From a virus (taxonomy: Duplodnaviria > Caudoviricetes): 64,000 nt of DNA. This document shows, one piece after another, positions 13,626-59,168 of the stretch. The stretch's first letter is position 1. The number at the start of each line of letters is the position of its first letter. The stretch is from the IMG/VR virus record IMGVR_UViG_3300033068_001989, positions 64,001 to 128,000 of that record; one strand, given 5' to 3'. The position numbers and the translations under genes are program-made. The notes under the pieces were generated by a model. That model was not told the DNA's origin, ran no database searches, and saw only the letters and a list, made by a program, of their open reading frames with translations.

Positions 13626-15032
13626 TTAGTAGTTCATATTTCCAAATTTAGAACCACCATATTGATCATTAAGATTCTTAAGTCTGCTATCAGTAACAAA
13701 TCTAACCATCCTAACATCCTCTGGAGCTTTTACTTTCATAGTTTCTTTGCTTACCTCAGAATTATCACCAAGTATTCCTCCTCTAAAAACACCACCAACT
13801 ATCTTACAGTTTATGTTTTTATTTTCACAATCTATAAAGCAATCTTTAAGTTCATTACTAAAATCAACTATAGTAGCCTTTACTTTGGAAGAGATTATTT
13901 TGGTACCACCGAAGATAAATGAATCCTCAACGCAAGATTTTTTTATGGAACAGTTATAAATGTTACAATCTCTAACTGTTGCATTTTTTATATCGCATAA
14001 TATAAGATCAACCCCGCTTATCTCGAATGCTCCTCTACTTCTAGCTTCTTTAACTTGACATCTACCAGTAGTTGTATCATAGTTAAAGTAACAAGAAGTT
14101 ATATTTCCATCTACAATAAGATCAAATATCTTATCTCTTATTGAAAAGAAGTACGTTTTAACATTCTCGTCCCATCCCTTAAGGTCTATAAAAATATGAA
14201 AGTCGGGATAGTTTCTAAAAAATATATCAGGATCACTAAAAGATCTAACAACCTTAGAATACTTATTCATCATTGTCTGAAGTGTAGCAAGATCCTGTTT
14301 GTTATATCCTGAGATTCTTCCGCTTAGTATATCATAAAGATAAAGAACTATATAATCTATTATCTCTCTTATATCTTTAATTTTTTTCTGATAATCTCTA
14401 TTACCAAGATATCTGAATTCTATATAACCCTTCGGTATTTTAGTAAAATTTACTCCATAGTATTTGTCCTCAGGTACTTTGTACATTTTAGGGTCTATGG
14501 TAGTGATGTTCTCTAGTATAGAGAATCTATTTCTAGGAAGTACTTTTTTAACAGATTTGGCATAGACGTTCTTTTCTCTTGATCCAAACTTAGAATATAT
14601 TAGGCCTTCGTCCAGGCCTAATACAAACTTAAGTTTATCTATTGTCTCAATTTTATTCTTTACGTCTCTTCTGTTTTTATCGAAGCTAACAGAAAACTGG
14701 AATGCACATCTATCATTAGTCCATCCGTTTTCATCTATCCATTTTAATATCTTTATTAAAATTGGAATTGCCTCCATATATGGAAGTGGTCCAGTAATTA
14801 ATTCAACCATCTTATTACCACCAGAATAATCAGGTTCTAATTTGAAGTTGTTTGAGTCTACTGGAGTTTTTGAGTGATATTTTTCAGAAACTACAACTTT
14901 TTTTTTGACAAGCTGGGATAATGCTTCGGCAGCCTTACCTTTTAAAAGGTCGGTATAAAATTCAAATTCAAATCCTATTACTGAGGAGCTGAGAGCATTA
15001 AGCTTATCAAAATGTGTTCTATTATCCGGCAT
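13626..15032 (-). CDS. Amidoligase_2 (COOH-NH2 ligase)-like protein with C-terminal beta-helix-like region
   Basis: IGFEFEF, PDYSGG..VELITGPL, KYYGVNF, YIEFRYLG; the usual CGxHxH motif reads CAFQFS. Confidence 0.6.
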   Translation of the reverse strand: MPDNRTHFDKLNALSSSVIGFEFEFYTDLLKGKAAEALSQLVKKKVVVSEKYHSKTPVDSNNFKLEPDYSGGNKMVELITGPLPYMEAIPILIKILKWIDENGWTNDRCAFQFSVSFDKNRRDVKNKIETIDKLKFVLGLDEGLIYSKFGSREKNVYAKSVKKVLPRNRFSILENITTIDPKMYKVPEDKYYGVNFTKIPKGYIEFRYLGNRDYQKKIKDIREIIDYIVLYLYDILSGRISGYNKQDLATLQTMMNKYSKVVRSFSDPDIFFRNYPDFHIFIDLKGWDENVKTYFFSIRDKIFDLIVDGNITSCYFNYDTTTGRCQVKEARSRGAFEISGVDLILCDIKNATVRDCNIYNCSIKKSCVEDSFIFGGTKIISSKVKATIVDFSNELKDCFIDCENKNINCKIVGGVFRGGILGDNSEVSKETMKVKAPEDVRMVRFVTDSRLKNLNDQYGGSKFGNMNY

Positions 15033-52116: not shown

Positions 52117-53754
52117 TTATAAAGTTACCTGTGGTGTCTCCTCCGCCCCTTCCGCTGGAGGGGTTTCTTTAGATTCTTCTGGCGTAGTTTCTCCCTCAGG
52201 AGGAGCGGAAGCTGCTCCAGCTTTTTCTTCAGCCTTTTTATATTGTTCGTTAAGCTTTAATTGATCCGGTGACATACCAATGAATCTTTGTATAAGGAAG
52301 TCGTTATCGAAATATGGAACATCCTCCTCTCCTGCCTTAACCTTAAGGTCAGCAAGCGAAGTTACAAATTCACTTTTCTTTTTAAGATTTGTCATTTCAA
52401 CCTGATCTTCAAACTCAAGATCTCTATTAAAATCAAGTCCTATATTAGCTTTAAAGTTTCTATCCTTAGCCAATTCTGGATAATCCAGACACATCTGTAT
52501 ATAAAGAGGTTTTACTAATATCTCCTGGAATATGGATCTAAGTCTTCTTAGAAATTTTTCGAATCTTATTTCGTCTCTCTCCAATTGATCTATCGCTATC
52601 TGATAATTAGCAGGTGTTCCGTTCTTTGCAGCAAATCTTGCATATGGTATTTTCGAATCCATTTTTAACTTATTGAAGAAATAAAGAACGTTATCCATAA
52701 CGTTAAAATCAGGACCGGAAGGATTTAGTGAAGATATCTCAGGTGAAACTCCGTTTTGTTCAGGAAATAAATAATTTTTATAAAACTGAACTTTAGGTCT
52801 ACCGTTTACTGTAAGTTCGCCCGAAGAATCATTAATACTGATTTCCTCCTTGTAATTCGACATAAGCTGTCCTAAGGTTTGCATTGCTTTTTGGGGTGAC
52901 TGAGTACCAATAGGAATGATGAATTTCATTCTATAGCTAGCATTCATAACATTCCATATAACTCTAGAATTCTCCATGATTCTAAGTATATTGTATGATC
53001 TAACTAATCTTTCAACATAACTTGTCCTTGATATTGTATTTCCCTTAGCATAAGATATGTAAATTATCTGTTCATTGGTAAGTTTCCTAAACATCTGGGG
53101 ATTATTAGGATACTGAAGCCAAAATTGCTTATATTCATTTTCACCAACCTTCTCAACAACAGGTTCAAGAGATACTGCATCCAATTCTTTAAATCCTATT
53201 ATTTCCTTACCTTTGCTATCATATATTATTTCAAACGCTAGAAATCCATCTATAATAAACTGTCTAAAATATTGCCAACCCAAAACAGTATTTTGAAATT
53301 GAAATATGTTATACAATCTATTGAAATGTGAACTTATCTTTTCTTTTATATTATCTTTAAGATCTATATTAGAAAAAGATGGCTGAGCAAAATAATTTCT
53401 ATCATCATAAACTATTGCTTCGTCAGTAATGATATCCAATATGAATTCAATCTCACCATTTATTGAGAACTTTCTAAGATAATTTCTCTTCTCAATATAC
53501 GATTTATCAAAATATGCTATATATTTTCTTACTTTAGTATCATGATACGATGCAGTCCACTGAAAAGCACTATCCTTAGTATAACCAGTGCCCTCCTGAT
53601 TGAAAAAAGCTCCCTCAGTTCTACCGATGGCCTGAGAGTTTCTAACAATCATATCATCGTATTGCATACCAAATTTGGATATATTACCCAAATTCTTCAA
53701 TATGTTACCCAATGCCGCTTGATTGGGTTTTAAAAAGTCTAAAAATCCTGCCAT
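52117..53754 (-). CDS. gp20: Portal protein, T4 gp20-like (copy 2)
   Basis: EIEFILDIITDEAIV, FRQFIIDG, LRIMENSRVIW, QLERDEIRFEKFLRRLRSIF. Confidence 0.88.
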   Translation of the reverse strand: MAGFLDFLKPNQAALGNILKNLGNISKFGMQYDDMIVRNSQAIGRTEGAFFNQEGTGYTKDSAFQWTASYHDTKVRKYIAYFDKSYIEKRNYLRKFSINGEIEFILDIITDEAIVYDDRNYFAQPSFSNIDLKDNIKEKISSHFNRLYNIFQFQNTVLGWQYFRQFIIDGFLAFEIIYDSKGKEIIGFKELDAVSLEPVVEKVGENEYKQFWLQYPNNPQMFRKLTNEQIIYISYAKGNTISRTSYVERLVRSYNILRIMENSRVIWNVMNASYRMKFIIPIGTQSPQKAMQTLGQLMSNYKEEISINDSSGELTVNGRPKVQFYKNYLFPEQNGVSPEISSLNPSGPDFNVMDNVLYFFNKLKMDSKIPYARFAAKNGTPANYQIAIDQLERDEIRFEKFLRRLRSIFQEILVKPLYIQMCLDYPELAKDRNFKANIGLDFNRDLEFEDQVEMTNLKKKSEFVTSLADLKVKAGEEDVPYFDNDFLIQRFIGMSPDQLKLNEQYKKAEEKAGAASAPPEGETTPEESKETPPAEGAEETPQVTL

Positions 53755-53758
53755 GTTA

Positions 53759-55375
53759 TTATAGTGTTACTTGTGGTGCTTCTTCCCCGCCTTCTTCTTT
53801 CTTAGACTCTTTCCCTCCTGCTGCCTTTTCAGTTTTCGCTTTCTCCTTCGCCTTTCTTTCTTTGGCCTCTTTGTTAGCTATTATATCCTGTTTAGACATA
53901 CCTAAATACTCCTCTATAAGAAATGCATTGGAAAAAAATGGTTTACCGTCATCATTCATTAGACCACCAAGACTAGAGATTGTTTCCTTTCTCTGTACCA
54001 TCTTACCTATTTCCTGATTTTCTTTAAACGGATTGTCAGACCAGTAATTAAGTCCCAATTGACTTTTGAATAGAAAATCTTTTTCAAGATATGGATATTT
54101 ATTAACCATCTGTAGCCACATAGGTTTAACTAATATTTCCTGGAATACGGATCTAAGTCTAGATATAAATTTATAGAATCTTATTTCCTCTTTATCTAAT
54201 CCCTCTGCTCCATTTGAATATGGTGATGTGCTACCTCCGTCAGGATTATGAAACCTCGATGGTGGAACCTTAGATTCCAATATAAATTTATCAAAGAAAT
54301 ATGTTAATGGAGCAGGGTCATTCAAATTTGGTCCCTCTGTATTTATTGGCTCGATAGTCGGTGTTCCGTTAACACCAGAAGGCATAAGATAATTCTTATA
54401 GAACTGTATCTTTGGTCTACCGTCAACAGTAAGCTCGCCGCTTTCATCATTTAACTGTATGTCTTCCTTATATACGCTCATAAGTTCCCCCAATGTTTGC
54501 ATACCTTTTTGTTGAGATTTTGTACCTATAGGAACAGTCATTTTAAGTTTAAATGAAGCATTCATAACAGACCATATAACTCTAGTATATTCTATTATCC
54601 TCAATATATTATAAGGTCTTATAAGTCTCTCGATATAACTAACCCTTGATATTGAATTACCCTTGGCGTATGATATGTATATTATTTGGGGATCATATAG
54701 TACCCTTTTCTTCTTTGGGTCCTGAGGGTATTGTGTCCAAGTACTAACAAAGCTTCCATCCAATTGCTTCTCCACACTAGGAATAAGAGTTATCGGATCA
54801 AGTTCCTTAAAACCGACTATCTTCTTACCACTGTCATCATATACGATTTCAAATGCTAGAAATCCGTCTATAATAAACTGTCTAAAATATTGCCATGCTG
54901 TTATATCATCAGAAAATCCCCATATATCATACAGATTCTTATATACATCATATAGCTCATCCTTTACCTTCTCGTTTACGTCAGTAAGATCTATAAAATC
55001 CGGATATGCAAAAAAATTAGCGGGATCGTAAGTTATTGCTTCATCACATATTGTATCAAGAACCCATTCAACCTCAGGATTAAGAGAGAACATTCTTAAA
55101 AATTCTCGCTTACCTTTATAATCCTTATCGAAGTATCCTATGAATTGTCTGGATGTTACATCTTGCTTAGCAAGAGCCCATAGCATGCTTTCGTCCTCTA
55201 CGTTCGATTTATTCTTATTAAGAAAAGCTGCTTCGGTTACACCGACAGCCTGTGAATTTCTTATAACCATGTCATCATACTTCATACCAAAAGTACTAAG
55301 CTTTTTGACCGACTCACGTATTCTCTGTATTACCGGAGATTCCGATGGTTTATTATTATCTACAAAACCTGCCAT
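53759..55375 (-). CDS. gp20: Portal protein, T4 gp20-like (copy 1)
   Basis: PEVEWVLDTICDEAI, FRQFIIDG, SKVPPSRF, DKEEIRFYKFISRLRSVF. Confidence 0.88.
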   Translation of the reverse strand: MAGFVDNNKPSESPVIQRIRESVKKLSTFGMKYDDMVIRNSQAVGVTEAAFLNKNKSNVEDESMLWALAKQDVTSRQFIGYFDKDYKGKREFLRMFSLNPEVEWVLDTICDEAITYDPANFFAYPDFIDLTDVNEKVKDELYDVYKNLYDIWGFSDDITAWQYFRQFIIDGFLAFEIVYDDSGKKIVGFKELDPITLIPSVEKQLDGSFVSTWTQYPQDPKKKRVLYDPQIIYISYAKGNSISRVSYIERLIRPYNILRIIEYTRVIWSVMNASFKLKMTVPIGTKSQQKGMQTLGELMSVYKEDIQLNDESGELTVDGRPKIQFYKNYLMPSGVNGTPTIEPINTEGPNLNDPAPLTYFFDKFILESKVPPSRFHNPDGGSTSPYSNGAEGLDKEEIRFYKFISRLRSVFQEILVKPMWLQMVNKYPYLEKDFLFKSQLGLNYWSDNPFKENQEIGKMVQRKETISSLGGLMNDDGKPFFSNAFLIEEYLGMSKQDIIANKEAKERKAKEKAKTEKAAGGKESKKEEGGEEAPQVTL

Positions 55376-55414
55376 TTAATTTATTTTTTTGATATTTATA
55401 TATCGAGATTAATG

Positions 55415-55900
55415 CTATCTACTCTTGAATAAAAAATTTTCGTCAATAACTCCAAATCTATATCCTCTCTTATCTGCCCATTCCTTAGCTGCTTTGAATT
55501 TTGCTTGGTTGGTTATCCATATTTGCATATTTCTGTTATATGACTTAAGCTTAGCTAAAGTCATAACACCTTCCATTATGGGTTTAATCGTTTGTTTTTC
55601 TGGTTTTATCTCTATTATCCATTCCTGTTCACTATTATCTTCCTTTAGGACCTTTATATAAAAATCAACATTATAGTTATGGTCTTTTTTATCAAGAGGA
55701 TTGTAATATGGTATAACAACCGGTTCAGAGCTCCATTTTAATATGGATTCATTTGTGTCACAGTATGTACAAAACCTATATTCCCAGGAAGATCTATAGA
55801 TAATATTATGTATATCACCTATATACTTATCAGGATTCTTAGGATCATATTTACCAGATTTATATTCACCATTAGGTTTTATCTTCTTGATATCTGGCAT
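55415..55900 (-). CDS. gp4: Head completion protein gp4 (TnsA-like nuclease fold)
   Basis: GKYDPKNPDKYIGD, IYRSSWE, KWSSEPVVIPY, IEIKP, NQAKFKAA. Confidence 0.88.
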   Translation of the reverse strand: MPDIKKIKPNGEYKSGKYDPKNPDKYIGDIHNIIYRSSWEYRFCTYCDTNESILKWSSEPVVIPYYNPLDKKDHNYNVDFYIKVLKEDNSEQEWIIEIKPEKQTIKPIMEGVMTLAKLKSYNRNMQIWITNQAKFKAAKEWADKRGYRFGVIDENFLFKSR

Positions 55901-55903
55901 AGT

Positions 55904-56263
55904 CTAGATGTTATATGAATTATCATCACCAGTTATATAACTAAATGGGATCGTTACCGGATTTTTTGGTGGATGTAATTTCTTCCATCCTTTGGCAAAT
56001 CCATGCTTAGCTATCTGTGTAAAATAAGCAAATGGATTGTTAGATTTTTCCGGATTGAATCTATTCCAATATTTACATAAATCTTCCATAGCAAAAGCCA
56101 TGCAATCCTCTCTATCCTCAGGATCCTTGTATGACATTTTCTTAGATATACCTTCAATCATAAGATTGAACATATCTATAGTTGCTGGCGTTAATTTTCC
56201 AGCATTCTTCGATTCAATAACAGCTGCCATTAGCTCGCTATTCTTTACATAAACTTTTGCCAT
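55904..56263 (-). CDS. gp55: Late-transcription sigma factor, T4 gp55-like (short)
   Basis: YVKNSEL, YKDPEDREDC, RFNPEKSNNPFAYFTQI. Confidence 0.8.
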   Translation of the reverse strand: MAKVYVKNSELMAAVIESKNAGKLTPATIDMFNLMIEGISKKMSYKDPEDREDCMAFAMEDLCKYWNRFNPEKSNNPFAYFTQIAKHGFAKGWKKLHPPKNPVTIPFSYITGDDNSYNI

Positions 56264-56326
56264 TAATATTTTATTATATTTGGGTATTTAGTATTTTAGT
56301 TATAAAATACTAAAAGATTTCATCAC

Positions 56327-56362
56327 AAAAAAAAGAATGCAGTAAAAAATACTACATTCTTC
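56327..56362 (-). terminator. Intrinsic terminator
   Basis: Minus strand AAGAATGTAGTA-loop-TACTGCATTCTT-T run (one G:U pair). Confidence 0.8.
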
Positions 56363-56366
56363 TTAA

Positions 56367-56528
56367 TTATTGTTTATCTTCACCGGAGTCATCGTTTTCT
56401 TCGTCGTTAAGATCCTCCGTTTTACCGGTAGGTGCCTTTGCGAATTTACCCTTCATGGATTGAATAAAAGATTTACCAGGTTTATTTTGATTTTCACCTT
56501 TAGGTGCGAAATAGAAGTTGCGACTTAG
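56367..56528 (-). CDS. -1 frame C-terminal extension (53 codons) of the 853-aa protein
   Basis: After GTA AAA AAA AAC TAA the -1 frame reads LSRNFYFAPKGENQNKPGKSFIQSMKGKFAKAPTGKTEDLNDEENDDSGEDKQ*. Confidence 0.65.
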   Translation of the reverse strand, partial: LSRNFYFAPKGENQNKPGKSFIQSMKGKFAKAPTGKTEDLNDEENDDSGEDKQ

Positions 56529-59086
56529 TTTTTTTTTACTTCCTCGGATTCATCAATATTGTATCCAGATTTATAAACTTTAGAATCCTTAGCATCGGAT
56601 GCATCGAATTTTAAAACCCCATTCTTGTCACCAGGAGCAGAACTAAGATTATTTTTCCCTAATTCCTTACCGTTTTGTTTATTACTATTACCAGGTGCTT
56701 CCGCTAGATTTTTCTTAGTGTTAGCATTTTTACCTTTATTCATTTCATCGTTACCAGGAGCATCAGAAAAATCAGGGTCGGTAGAACCGTTTGTTAATTT
56801 AGATTTACCTTTTTTATCTGGTGCATCAGCTAATGATTTATTTTTTACATTAACCTGTGGAGCTTTTTTATCGTTACCTGGAGCTTTAGAATAATTAGTT
56901 TTAGGTGTTGAATTCTTTAAATCTGCCTTACCCTCATTCATTGTTCTATTATATCCATGTAAAGAATCACCGTCCATGTCTATCTTTTCGTTATCGTTAC
57001 CTGGGGCTTTAGAAAATCCATGCATTCCAGCAAGTTTTTTTAACATTTTCTTTTGCTCGCTTTCAGGTAAATCCGACTTATTGAGGTTATTAGATTCTTT
57101 AACCTCACCAGAATCGTCATTGTTATCATCAGCAGCTTCAGCATTATCATCAGCAGCTTTATTTAGTGCTTCGTCAAGATCAGCAAGCTCGTTTATCTGA
57201 TGATCTGCAGTTTTTCCACTATCTAAAAGAATAGTGTATCTACCAGATGATCCATCAATAGATATTACTTTACCTGTTTCTCCTGATTCTTTAACTTTAA
57301 CAAAAGATCCTATATTAAATTTCTGATCCTCGAATAAATCAGAATTTGGTAATAATGTTATATTCTCTTCTACTTTCTGTATTTCGATATTTATCTGATT
57401 CCATTTAGTTTTAAGAGTTTGTAGTTCTTTCTCCAACATTGAATGAGCAACATTTATCTCCTTTGAATTCTTATATAAAGGATTAGATTCCATAAGTGTT
57501 TCAACCTTATTAATCTCACCTTCAATTTTAGAAATATTTTCAAGAATCTTATTTCTATCATTAATCATAACAGATTTAATTTTAGATTCTCCATCAAGAA
57601 ATTCTGTTAAACCTTCTGAAATATCATATCTCATAAAGTTCTTAACAAGTGATACTGCTTGAGATCCATTAACTTCATATAGCGAATTTTCTCTCATAGC
57701 CTCATTTATTTTCTGAAGATATATCTGTCCGTTCCATTTGAAAAGGTTAATAGCAAGGCCTTCATATACATTAGATGTTATAGATTTAGCAAAATCCAAT
57801 TCAACAACATTAGAATAGTTTGTATAAAGTGTCATAATATCACCTACAACCTCAGATTCATTAACACCAAAGTATGACGAAGATTCCAATCCTATTATTT
57901 TAGCTAATCCAATAGAATCACCAAATCTAAGTTTATCCTTACCTAGATAAACAGATACATTATCGTTCTCTTCAACTAATGTAACTATTTTTTTACCGAG
58001 CTTAATTGAAATACCAGATTCGTTTATTTTAACGTGAGATTTCATCGTCGTTAGTGCAAGTCTTAGGTAATTTTCAGAAAGATTAGAATATTCGGATTTT
58101 GGTAATTTTCTTAGTGTATCTGATGTTGCTTCAAATATACATCCACCAATGAAGAAGAATGTTCTTCCACCCTCGAAAAGTACAGGAGAATAAACTTTAG
58201 AAACAGTAGATTCACCCTGAGCATTAACAGGAATTTCTAATTTTCTGCTATCTGTGCTTTCCTGTATATTAAGAAAATTTATAAGATTTTTAATAACTGG
58301 ATTGAAGCTAAATTTAGAAATATTTCTTACCAATAATCCATTAGATTTATTTTCAGAAACCAACCAAGAATTAAGTGTTTCTGAAAGTTCAGAATAGAAA
58401 GAAGCGCTTCCGCTATTCTTAATAGATTCCAAGACATTAGCAACCTCAATTTCTCTAGAGAATGATTTTGCTTTCTCTTTCAGTTCCTCTGCAATAGGTG
58501 CTATTGAAGAATCCCAAGAGAATGAAGCAAGTTCATTAACAAAGTTATTTATAAGTGAAAATTCAGGAACATTTTTATTATCCAATAGATATTGATACTG
58601 CTCGCATACCATTTTTGCTTTAGGGTAAGTATAAATGGATGACTCCTTTATCTTCTCTATAGCATTTCTAATACCAAGATTTTTTACTCCTTGGGATTCG
58701 ATAAACGATTTTGCAGCGGGATCAGAAGTTTCAAGATTTGCTATACTCTCATATAAAGAATTCTCATTATCTTTATTTTCTTTTGGCTTATCTGAATAAG
58801 ATCCAGAATTGCTTGATGTAGATTTTCCTAAACCTCCCCAAGATTCCATAAGTGAAGCAGCAGCTTTTTTAGAGATCTCTGACTCTTCTCTTTTTATTAA
58901 ATCCATATGATTTTGTATATTATTTCCAGCATTATCTAAATCCAGGGATGCATTATGTTCATTAATTAAAACTGTCATGCTTTCTTTAGAAACTGAACCT
59001 CCATTAAGGAAGCTTTCACATAAAGCTTTTACCTCAGGTGATTTTGTTATTTCTTTTACTTTTTTAACTTGATCTATAAAGTCCAT
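56525..59086 (-). CDS. Large putative prohead core / internal head protein with SH3-like module and xxAPG repeats
   Basis: Many (L/I/V/M)-x-E(S) sites; FNIGSFVKVKESGETGKV; late motif upstream; adjacent to head genes. Confidence 0.5.
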   Translation of the reverse strand: MDFIDQVKKVKEITKSPEVKALCESFLNGGSVSKESMTVLINEHNASLDLDNAGNNIQNHMDLIKREESEISKKAAASLMESWGGLGKSTSSNSGSYSDKPKENKDNENSLYESIANLETSDPAAKSFIESQGVKNLGIRNAIEKIKESSIYTYPKAKMVCEQYQYLLDNKNVPEFSLINNFVNELASFSWDSSIAPIAEELKEKAKSFSREIEVANVLESIKNSGSASFYSELSETLNSWLVSENKSNGLLVRNISKFSFNPVIKNLINFLNIQESTDSRKLEIPVNAQGESTVSKVYSPVLFEGGRTFFFIGGCIFEATSDTLRKLPKSEYSNLSENYLRLALTTMKSHVKINESGISIKLGKKIVTLVEENDNVSVYLGKDKLRFGDSIGLAKIIGLESSSYFGVNESEVVGDIMTLYTNYSNVVELDFAKSITSNVYEGLAINLFKWNGQIYLQKINEAMRENSLYEVNGSQAVSLVKNFMRYDISEGLTEFLDGESKIKSVMINDRNKILENISKIEGEINKVETLMESNPLYKNSKEINVAHSMLEKELQTLKTKWNQINIEIQKVEENITLLPNSDLFEDQKFNIGSFVKVKESGETGKVISIDGSSGRYTILLDSGKTADHQINELADLDEALNKAADDNAEAADDNNDDSGEVKESNNLNKSDLPESEQKKMLKKLAGMHGFSKAPGNDNEKIDMDGDSLHGYNRTMNEGKADLKNSTPKTNYSKAPGNDKKAPQVNVKNKSLADAPDKKGKSKLTNGSTDPDFSDAPGNDEMNKGKNANTKKNLAEAPGNSNKQNGKELGKNNLSSAPGDKNGVLKFDASDAKDSKVYKSGYNIDESEEVKKN

Positions 59087-59168
59087 GGTTTACTTTTTTT
59101 TTATTGATTATATATCCATACAAGGACAAGAAACTTTTTACTATATATTTTATAAATGAAATATTTTA

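Follow-up and report, generated by a model that had tools for sequence, protein, structure and literature searches.

A deeply conserved run of nine adenines near the 3' end of a phage gene: a putative recoding site for two protein isoforms

Programmed transcriptional slippage at runs of nine A or nine T (the 9A/9T class) has been described for dnaX of Thermus thermophilus, with its tau and gamma products, for insertion sequence (IS) elements, for mxiE of Shigella and for mapW of Staphylococcus aureus (PMC5009743; PMC1088944), and in bacteria transcriptional slippage has a reported length threshold (PMC1088944; PMC5009743). A second group of systems extends phage structural proteins at their C-terminus through a -1 shift, as in gene 10A/10B of T7 and T3, in Lactobacillus phage A2, in Listeria phages A118 and A500 and in additions of Ig-like domains (PMC5009743). 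It is also known that a stop codon 3' of a shift site stimulates frameshifting (Weiss et al. 1987; examples in PMC5009743). Here we describe a site that recalls all of these systems in 64,000 nucleotides (nt) of phage DNA, positions 64,001-128,000 of the 207,751-bp contig IMGVR_UViG_3300033068_001989 of IMG/VR (hereafter the window). Near the 3' end of a gene encoding an 853-aa protein, P0001, lies a run of nine adenines (A9) which, judged from its sequence and that of its relatives, is a deeply conserved recoding site giving two isoforms. As mechanism we favour slippage of RNA polymerase on the run, to which we assign a probability of roughly 0.55. Our literature searches found no description of this A9 site, which is a fresh example of a known recoding trick.

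All the features of the site lie on the minus strand and are given in window positions. The main open reading frame (ORF; 56525-59086) would yield the short isoform of 853 aa and ends GAA GTA AAA AAA AAC TAA. The A9 run, which is the putative shift site (GTA AAA AAA AAC), occupies 56529-56537, and the 0-frame stop TAA stands directly 3' of the shift site at 56525-56527. In the phase of the 0 frame the run holds two heptamers of the X_XXY_YYZ form, A_AAA_AAA and A_AAA_AAC, and in relatives A_AAA_AAG or A_AAA_AAU are found in phase. The -1 frame runs on through 56367-56528 for 53 codons beyond the run, with an acidic end, until a TAA at 56367-56369; its translation reads KKK-LSRNFYFAPKGE...FAKAPTGK...GEDKQ, and the main ORF joined to this extension would make a long isoform of about 906 aa. 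The gene thus has the layout of those phage structural proteins that gain a C-terminal extension through a -1 shift at the gene end. An intrinsic terminator at 56320-56364, with a stem of 15 pairs, a 5-nt loop (stem-loop 56364-56330) and a T tract, begins 2 nt past the stop of the extension, and homologous hairpins are visible 3' of the extension in relatives; no terminator was found after the first, 0-frame stop. The terminator closes the transcription unit before the gene of a gp55-like late sigma factor. A first-pass annotation made from the letters of this stretch had already described the ORF, the A-AAA-AAC before its stop, the 53 open codons of the -1 frame and a terminator placed after the second stop and not the first, and the sequence bears it out on each of these.

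The same arrangement is found in all the related DNA that covers this place. A protein search returned 287 relatives of P0001, and among the best 120, whose C-termini were inspected, about 110 end KKN or KKK, that is, they are called as stopping just past the run. Among DNA contigs, the junction is covered by 73 of 79 from IMG/VR and by 26 further metagenome contigs from JGI, ENA and NCBI. A9 or A10 stands at the junction in 73/73 of the former and A9 in 26/26 of the latter, which include three more in-frame forms, so that the run is present in 99/99 related contigs reaching the junction. There are 46 distinct junction sequences, and protein identity to P0001 goes from 96% down to 39%. The canonical order, in which A9 or A10 is followed by C, G or T, then by TAA or TAG and then by a -1 ORF of 50-77 codons, occurs in 62 of the 73 IMG/VR contigs. 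The remainder comprises two contigs with A10-GCT-TAA, two with A9-CCCA and a 0-frame stop 35 nt further on, four with the tail in frame and three in which the tail is a separate ORF. The same -1 shift is needed in 92 of the 99 contigs, which come from many studies. L003 and L004, whose homologs are about 856 aa long, also show the A9C form of the site. A layout that returns in all the related contigs covering the junction is not a product of chance; in non-identical homologs both the two-ORF organisation and the run are conserved, the combination that serves as criterion of functional slippage in Baranov et al. 2005. Conservation of this kind had been proposed by the first-pass annotation as a check on the site, and run, stop and -1 ORF are indeed retained in homologs. 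The relatives include complete phage genomes of about 290-435 kb.

The tail beyond the stop evolves as coding sequence. Over 36 gapless codons in 43 sequences, its ratio of nonsynonymous to synonymous substitution rates (dN/dS) is 0.215 in the -1 frame versus 1.31 and 1.61 in the other two frames, which also hold 2-4 stops, and its variation has a 3-nt periodicity with the peak at third positions of the -1 frame. By these measures, purifying selection acts on the tail in no frame but the -1. In addition, there appears to be no other route into that frame than a shift at the run: at 46 of 46 junctions the -1 frame is shut 9-45 nt upstream of the site, no ATG, GTG or TTG stands between, and most of the junctions lack a start codon before the conserved NFYFAP segment. 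The two isoforms that the first-pass annotation had proposed, made either by ribosomal frameshifting or by transcriptional slippage on A9, are supported by a conserved site followed by a tail so constrained. Stop-codon readthrough and an alternative genetic code were considered and rejected, as the tail lies in the -1 frame, and as under code 11 the genome has a coding density of 93%, with TAA, TAG and TGA all used as stops.

The relatives with other junctions illustrate how the tail may be attached. Natural in-frame fusions (..KKNPSRNFYFAPK..) exist, and for this reason the tail can be taken to belong to the P0001-type protein. The in-frame relatives (L066, L170, L171 and L172) keep A9 with differing flanks, and in them one extra A would bring a stop after 1-3 codons, so that the product would end KKKP or KKKPQS. 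A different solution is seen in L069:4270-4560, and also in L070 and L076 (931-aa form, P0118). There the main ORF ends ...STMNNEE TAA TAA, and about 60 nt past the double stop the tail sits in a small ORF, which has an ATG of its own (MSSNKILDFFSYINEENADVKKN-LSRNFYFAPK...) and keeps A9 in frame. The gap in this type starts after a GAA codon and stop and ends at another GAA, recalling the take-off and landing pair of T4 gene 60 bypassing; a plain separate ORF is the simpler reading.

A sister clade (L161:3480-3745, and L162-L167), with 31% identity to P0001 and 41-75% between its members, retains xCA AAA AAA AAG TAA. Behind it lies a -1 extension of about 80 codons that is conserved but unlike the one described above (EGIGNRLSF.LDDLKDCLGKLKELETS...NNFP) and ends just before the gp55-like gene. 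This extension is probably helical, and no Pfam family was found for it. Distant homologs in Lak megaphages and in LR756500.1 (22-24% identity) have neither an A run nor a -1 ORF at their C-termini, which limits the site to two freshwater clades.

At the junction, one of two features under selection beyond the coding is the length of the run itself. The codon before the run varies (GTA, TTA, CTA, CAA, GAA, TCA, GGA) and with it the residue (Val, Leu, Gln, Glu, Ser or Gly); its final A is always kept, and both Lys codons are always AAA. Codon bias does not account for this, given that genome-wide usage is 67% for AAA, 29% for GTA and 48% for TTA and CTA together. We also compared the A runs of the 214 genes of the genome, read in mRNA sense, with the expectation from 200 synonymous-codon shuffles. 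Runs of at least 7 are not depleted (142 observed, 145 expected). Runs of at least 8 are depleted 2.2-fold (24 observed versus 53 expected) and runs of at least 9 are depleted 3.8-fold (5 observed versus 18.8 expected), with 0 of 200 shuffles as low in either case. Most runs of at least 9 in the contig are intergenic and lie in the tails of terminators. From this depletion, homopolymer slippage seems to carry a genuine cost for the phage. The window's other A9 inside a gene served as control, at 14898-14906 in the minus-strand gene 13626-15032, where GTC AAA AAA AAA GTT encodes VKKKV at codon 43. In 5/5 relatives this run is broken by AAG or AAC while the segment is still lysine-rich (KKK in four, NKK in one), and so it appears to have arisen recently and to be free of selection; the two other frames each meet a stop within a few codons. 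Taken with the invariance of the junction, these comparisons show that run length is specifically under selection there. A further A9 is found at 59094-59102, in the untranslated leader of the 853-aa gene, 7 nt 5' of its ATG (...CAATAAAAAAAAAGTAAACCATG).

A sequencing or assembly error in the homopolymer, hiding a true A10, was an alternative raised by the first-pass annotation, and one may also think of decay, in which a frameshift has become fixed and the C-terminal remnant is dead. Homopolymers are error-prone in some chemistries, and the tail is in frame in a few relatives, yet we regard both ideas as very improbable. Over 56097-56932 the window agrees letter for letter (0 differences, 0 gaps) with a groundwater DNA assembly of an independent study, so that independent DNA carries A9 where A10 had been the test. 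Error would have to produce the same -1 shift across nearly all the contigs. It is moreover excluded by the relatives that do carry A10 (CAA AAA AAA AAG TAA), whose upstream frame is offset, so that -1 is still required. The fused forms differ outside the run, not in its length, and a dead remnant is ruled out by the dN/dS of the tail over such deep divergence. A somewhat less remote idea, though still an improbable one, is that reinitiation or a start of its own yields the tail as a small separate protein, or that the tail is never joined to the 853-aa protein. The tail module with its own ATG past the double stop in L069, L070 and L076 offers a precedent for it. Against this stand the closure of the -1 frame upstream and the missing start codons at all 46 junctions, the in-frame fusions, and the fact that the tail continues the main protein's own series of motifs.

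The next question is which machine shifts. Under slippage of RNA polymerase, standard decoding of a faithful mRNA would stop at the TAA after the run and give the 853-aa form, while a bacterial-type RNA polymerase would slip on the nine-base homopolymer and produce a share of mRNAs with A10, whose ordinary translation would go straight into the tail and give the form of about 906 aa; the extra A would thus be present at the RNA level, and the two isoforms would appear in some ratio. The principal rival, which we consider less probable though by no means negligible, is ribosomal -1 frameshifting on the unedited A9 mRNA. This could happen by a tandem slip on A_AAA_AAA or A_AAA_AAC, or by a 'shifty stop', in which the P-site tRNA moves from AAC to AAA while the slow UAA is in the A site, CUA being the next codon. 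Both processes may act together, a ribosomal slip adding to that of the polymerase. For the ribosome speak the slippery heptamer in correct phase and the adjacent stop, which as a known stimulator would make an RNA structure unnecessary. A_AAA_AAG, the most shift-prone heptamer in Escherichia coli, is moreover found in 27 of the 73 contigs from IMG/VR, or 15 of the 46 different junction sequences. For the polymerase speaks that the run never falls below nine in 99 contigs, though six A's and one further base would suffice for a ribosome. The genome's genes avoid runs of 8 and 9 and do not avoid A7, which matches the length threshold reported for slippage. The base after the run varies freely among C, G and T, and the most frequent heptamer at these junctions, A_AAA_AAC, shifts weakly in E. 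coli. A9 persists as the mirror arrangement in the in-frame lineage, where no stop adjoins it; L055 and L061 likewise have no adjacent stop. Finally, conserved RNA structure or a Shine-Dalgarno (SD)-like element is missing. In 33 sequences RNAalifold predicted 0 conserved pairs, whether within 100 nt downstream or within 70 nt upstream, the single-sequence fold of the site does not exceed that of shuffles in stability (z = 0.05), and neither a hairpin or pseudoknot at 5-9 nt nor an SD-like stimulator is conserved, an upstream GAGGA being confined to close relatives. Two small downstream hairpins suggested in the first-pass annotation (AAGT/ACTT and CACC/GGTG) do not survive this analysis, and in many relatives AAGT is AAGC. 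The classical signal of heptamer plus structure is thus absent, although the adjacent stop could act in place of the structure.

Several observations weigh against polymerase slippage. Any A9 contains an in-phase slippery heptamer, which leaves the ribosomal route open. The fused sample is narrow, with four distinct sequences from one close lineage (81-97% identity to P0109), and four other A9 runs inside genes are tolerated in the genome. In the RNA data, a 2720-nt contig of a river metatranscriptome (depth 27), from a relative with about 93% identity, extends over 56389-59100 with no indel and so takes in the run, the stop and the greater part of the tail; two other RNA runs (X16 and X18) lack coverage at this place, which speaks neither for nor against. 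The consensus of the RNA library is A9, as translation of an unedited mRNA would have it, though in assembled contigs, the only form of these data, minority run lengths are invisible; A10 transcripts, if present, are a minority. The adjacent stop provides a further point. The first -1-frame codon, which overlaps the 0-frame stop, is NTA in 43/43 sequences; A or G always opens the codon after it, and Ser is coded AGY in 38/43 sequences versus 26% genome-wide. From this codon pattern, the adjacent 0-frame stop is itself under selection, exerted on the overlapping -1-frame codons, and this is what a 'shifty stop' predicts, while slippage needs none. Selection to spare the short form a junk tail of 23 residues would also explain it. 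On balance we keep polymerase slippage as the favoured mechanism.

As for the protein, an AlphaFold2 model of P0001 has a folded core at about residues 110-650 (predicted local distance difference test, pLDDT, about 80) with helical domains, a beta domain, a long helical hairpin (491-580) and an SH3-like domain (592-636). From about residue 653 the chain, rich in Lys, Asn and Asp, is modelled as disordered, with pLDDT below 50. In this disordered tail lie six Phi-x-x-A-P motifs (residues 691-814; 56624-57016, minus strand), about 20 residues apart: FSKAPGND, YSKAPGND, LADAPDKK, FSDAPGND, LAEAPGNS and LSSAPGDK. Two further ones lie in the -1 extension. The first 650 residues contain just one other AP dipeptide, and in a six-frame translation of the whole contig the motif is confined to the P0001 gene and its extension, in line with the first-pass view that the extension adds two more copies of the C-terminal repeat. 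The tail probably supplies a disordered arm with additional short docking motifs, and recoding would set the share of molecules that gain two extra motifs and the acidic end. A PIP-box or clamp-binding reading of the NFYFAP segment was set aside because the spacing does not fit.

None of the searches put a name to the protein. With P0001 as query, PHROGs gave 0 hits, Pfam only sub-threshold matches (MSSS SH3, E = 0.005), and Foldseek against the PDB nothing at E <= 0.001. The BFVD structure search found only uncharacterised phage proteins, such as one of Tenacibaculum phage PTm1, VIA-align wide a match limited to the helical hairpin 491-580, and the ESM Atlas one viral cluster without a name; the extension alone had no match in Pfam. 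Downstream in the direction of transcription, the window region 52117-56263, next to the gene, holds genes for a short gp55-like late sigma factor (119 aa), for head closure and for two portal paralogues in tandem, and a gene for a DNA ligase also lies on this side; upstream are an exonuclease gene and genes of no recognised function. The neighbouring portal and head-closure genes are the only tie of P0001 to the head, and the label of head protein that it had received in the first-pass annotation draws no support from PHROGs, Pfam, the structure searches or the ESM Atlas. One sub-lineage (P0091, P0109, P0111, P0117 and P0118) has a PF01471 peptidoglycan-binding domain inserted after residue ~105 in the N-terminal region of the family, at columns 120-215 of our family alignment (A1), and this lineage is also the one with the in-frame tail. 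The insertion hints at a possible role in the cell envelope.

The site is unusual in the depth of its conservation, in having three architectures around one unchanged run, in its reuse for an unrelated module, and in a stop that is tightly conserved despite the lack of RNA structure. A tentative reading, to which we would give slightly less than even odds, is that it works as a fixed-ratio isoform switch operated by slippage of the host RNA polymerase and kept clade-wide in uncultured freshwater giant phages. The three architectures would then, just as tentatively, be a tail out of frame, a tail in frame where slippage gives the short form, and a tail in its own ORF; with a similar reserve, the sister clade might have attached a quite different helical module of about 80 residues at the same site. 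If this is true, the locus would be a clear case of clade-wide programmed transcriptional slippage in a gene of a double-stranded DNA phage, at a site older than the module attached to it. There is also a practical consequence. Gene callers shorten the protein in each of some 100 assemblies; almost every database entry ends KKN or KKK, and, as callers stop after the run, the long isoform and its conserved tail are missing from the protein databases for widespread freshwater giant phages. Furthermore, the family constitutes a natural recoding experiment, with C, G or T after the run, presence or absence of the adjacent stop, a tail that is out of frame, in frame or separate, and two unrelated extensions; this variation can be used in reporters to separate polymerase slippage from 'shifty-stop' frameshifting. 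Likewise, the Phi-x-x-A-P repeats in the modelled disordered arm look like a multivalent docking device whose copy number would be set by recoding, a view from which the role of this abundant protein can be approached.

Returning to the systems described so far, the P0001 site shares with the 9A/9T class a run of 9-10 A or T inside a coding region, independence from RNA structure, near stops in the alternative frame, and two products with a common N-terminus, and in both, homologs preserve the arrangement of the ORFs as well as the 9A run. For dnaX, too, relatives with mirror arrangements are known, in which either the long or the short form is made by the shift (PMC5009743; PMC1088944). The members of that class differ in encoding a clamp loader or a transposase, whereas P0001 is a phage gene, in which the 0-frame stop is held directly against the run and the site is known from sequence alone. 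With T7 10A/10B and its like, the locus has in common a -1 shift at the gene end that would extend a fraction of the molecules, and relatives with the extension in or out of frame (PMC5009743). There, however, the site is of the G_GUU_UUC type and the addition is an Ig-like domain, in contrast to the long homopolymer and the short, disordered, motif-bearing tail found here, and P0001 is not a recognised capsid or tail protein. In the -1 frameshifting of E. coli dnaX and of IS1 and IS911 (A_AAA_AAG, A_AAA_AAC), the same in-phase heptamers serve a fixed-ratio pair of products, but the P0001 site has neither the upstream SD-like element nor the downstream stem-loop or pseudoknot, and its run is three bases longer than the heptamer needs. 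By this comparison, the site most resembles the 9A/9T slippage class in its sequence features and the -1 extensions of phage proteins in its likely outcome.

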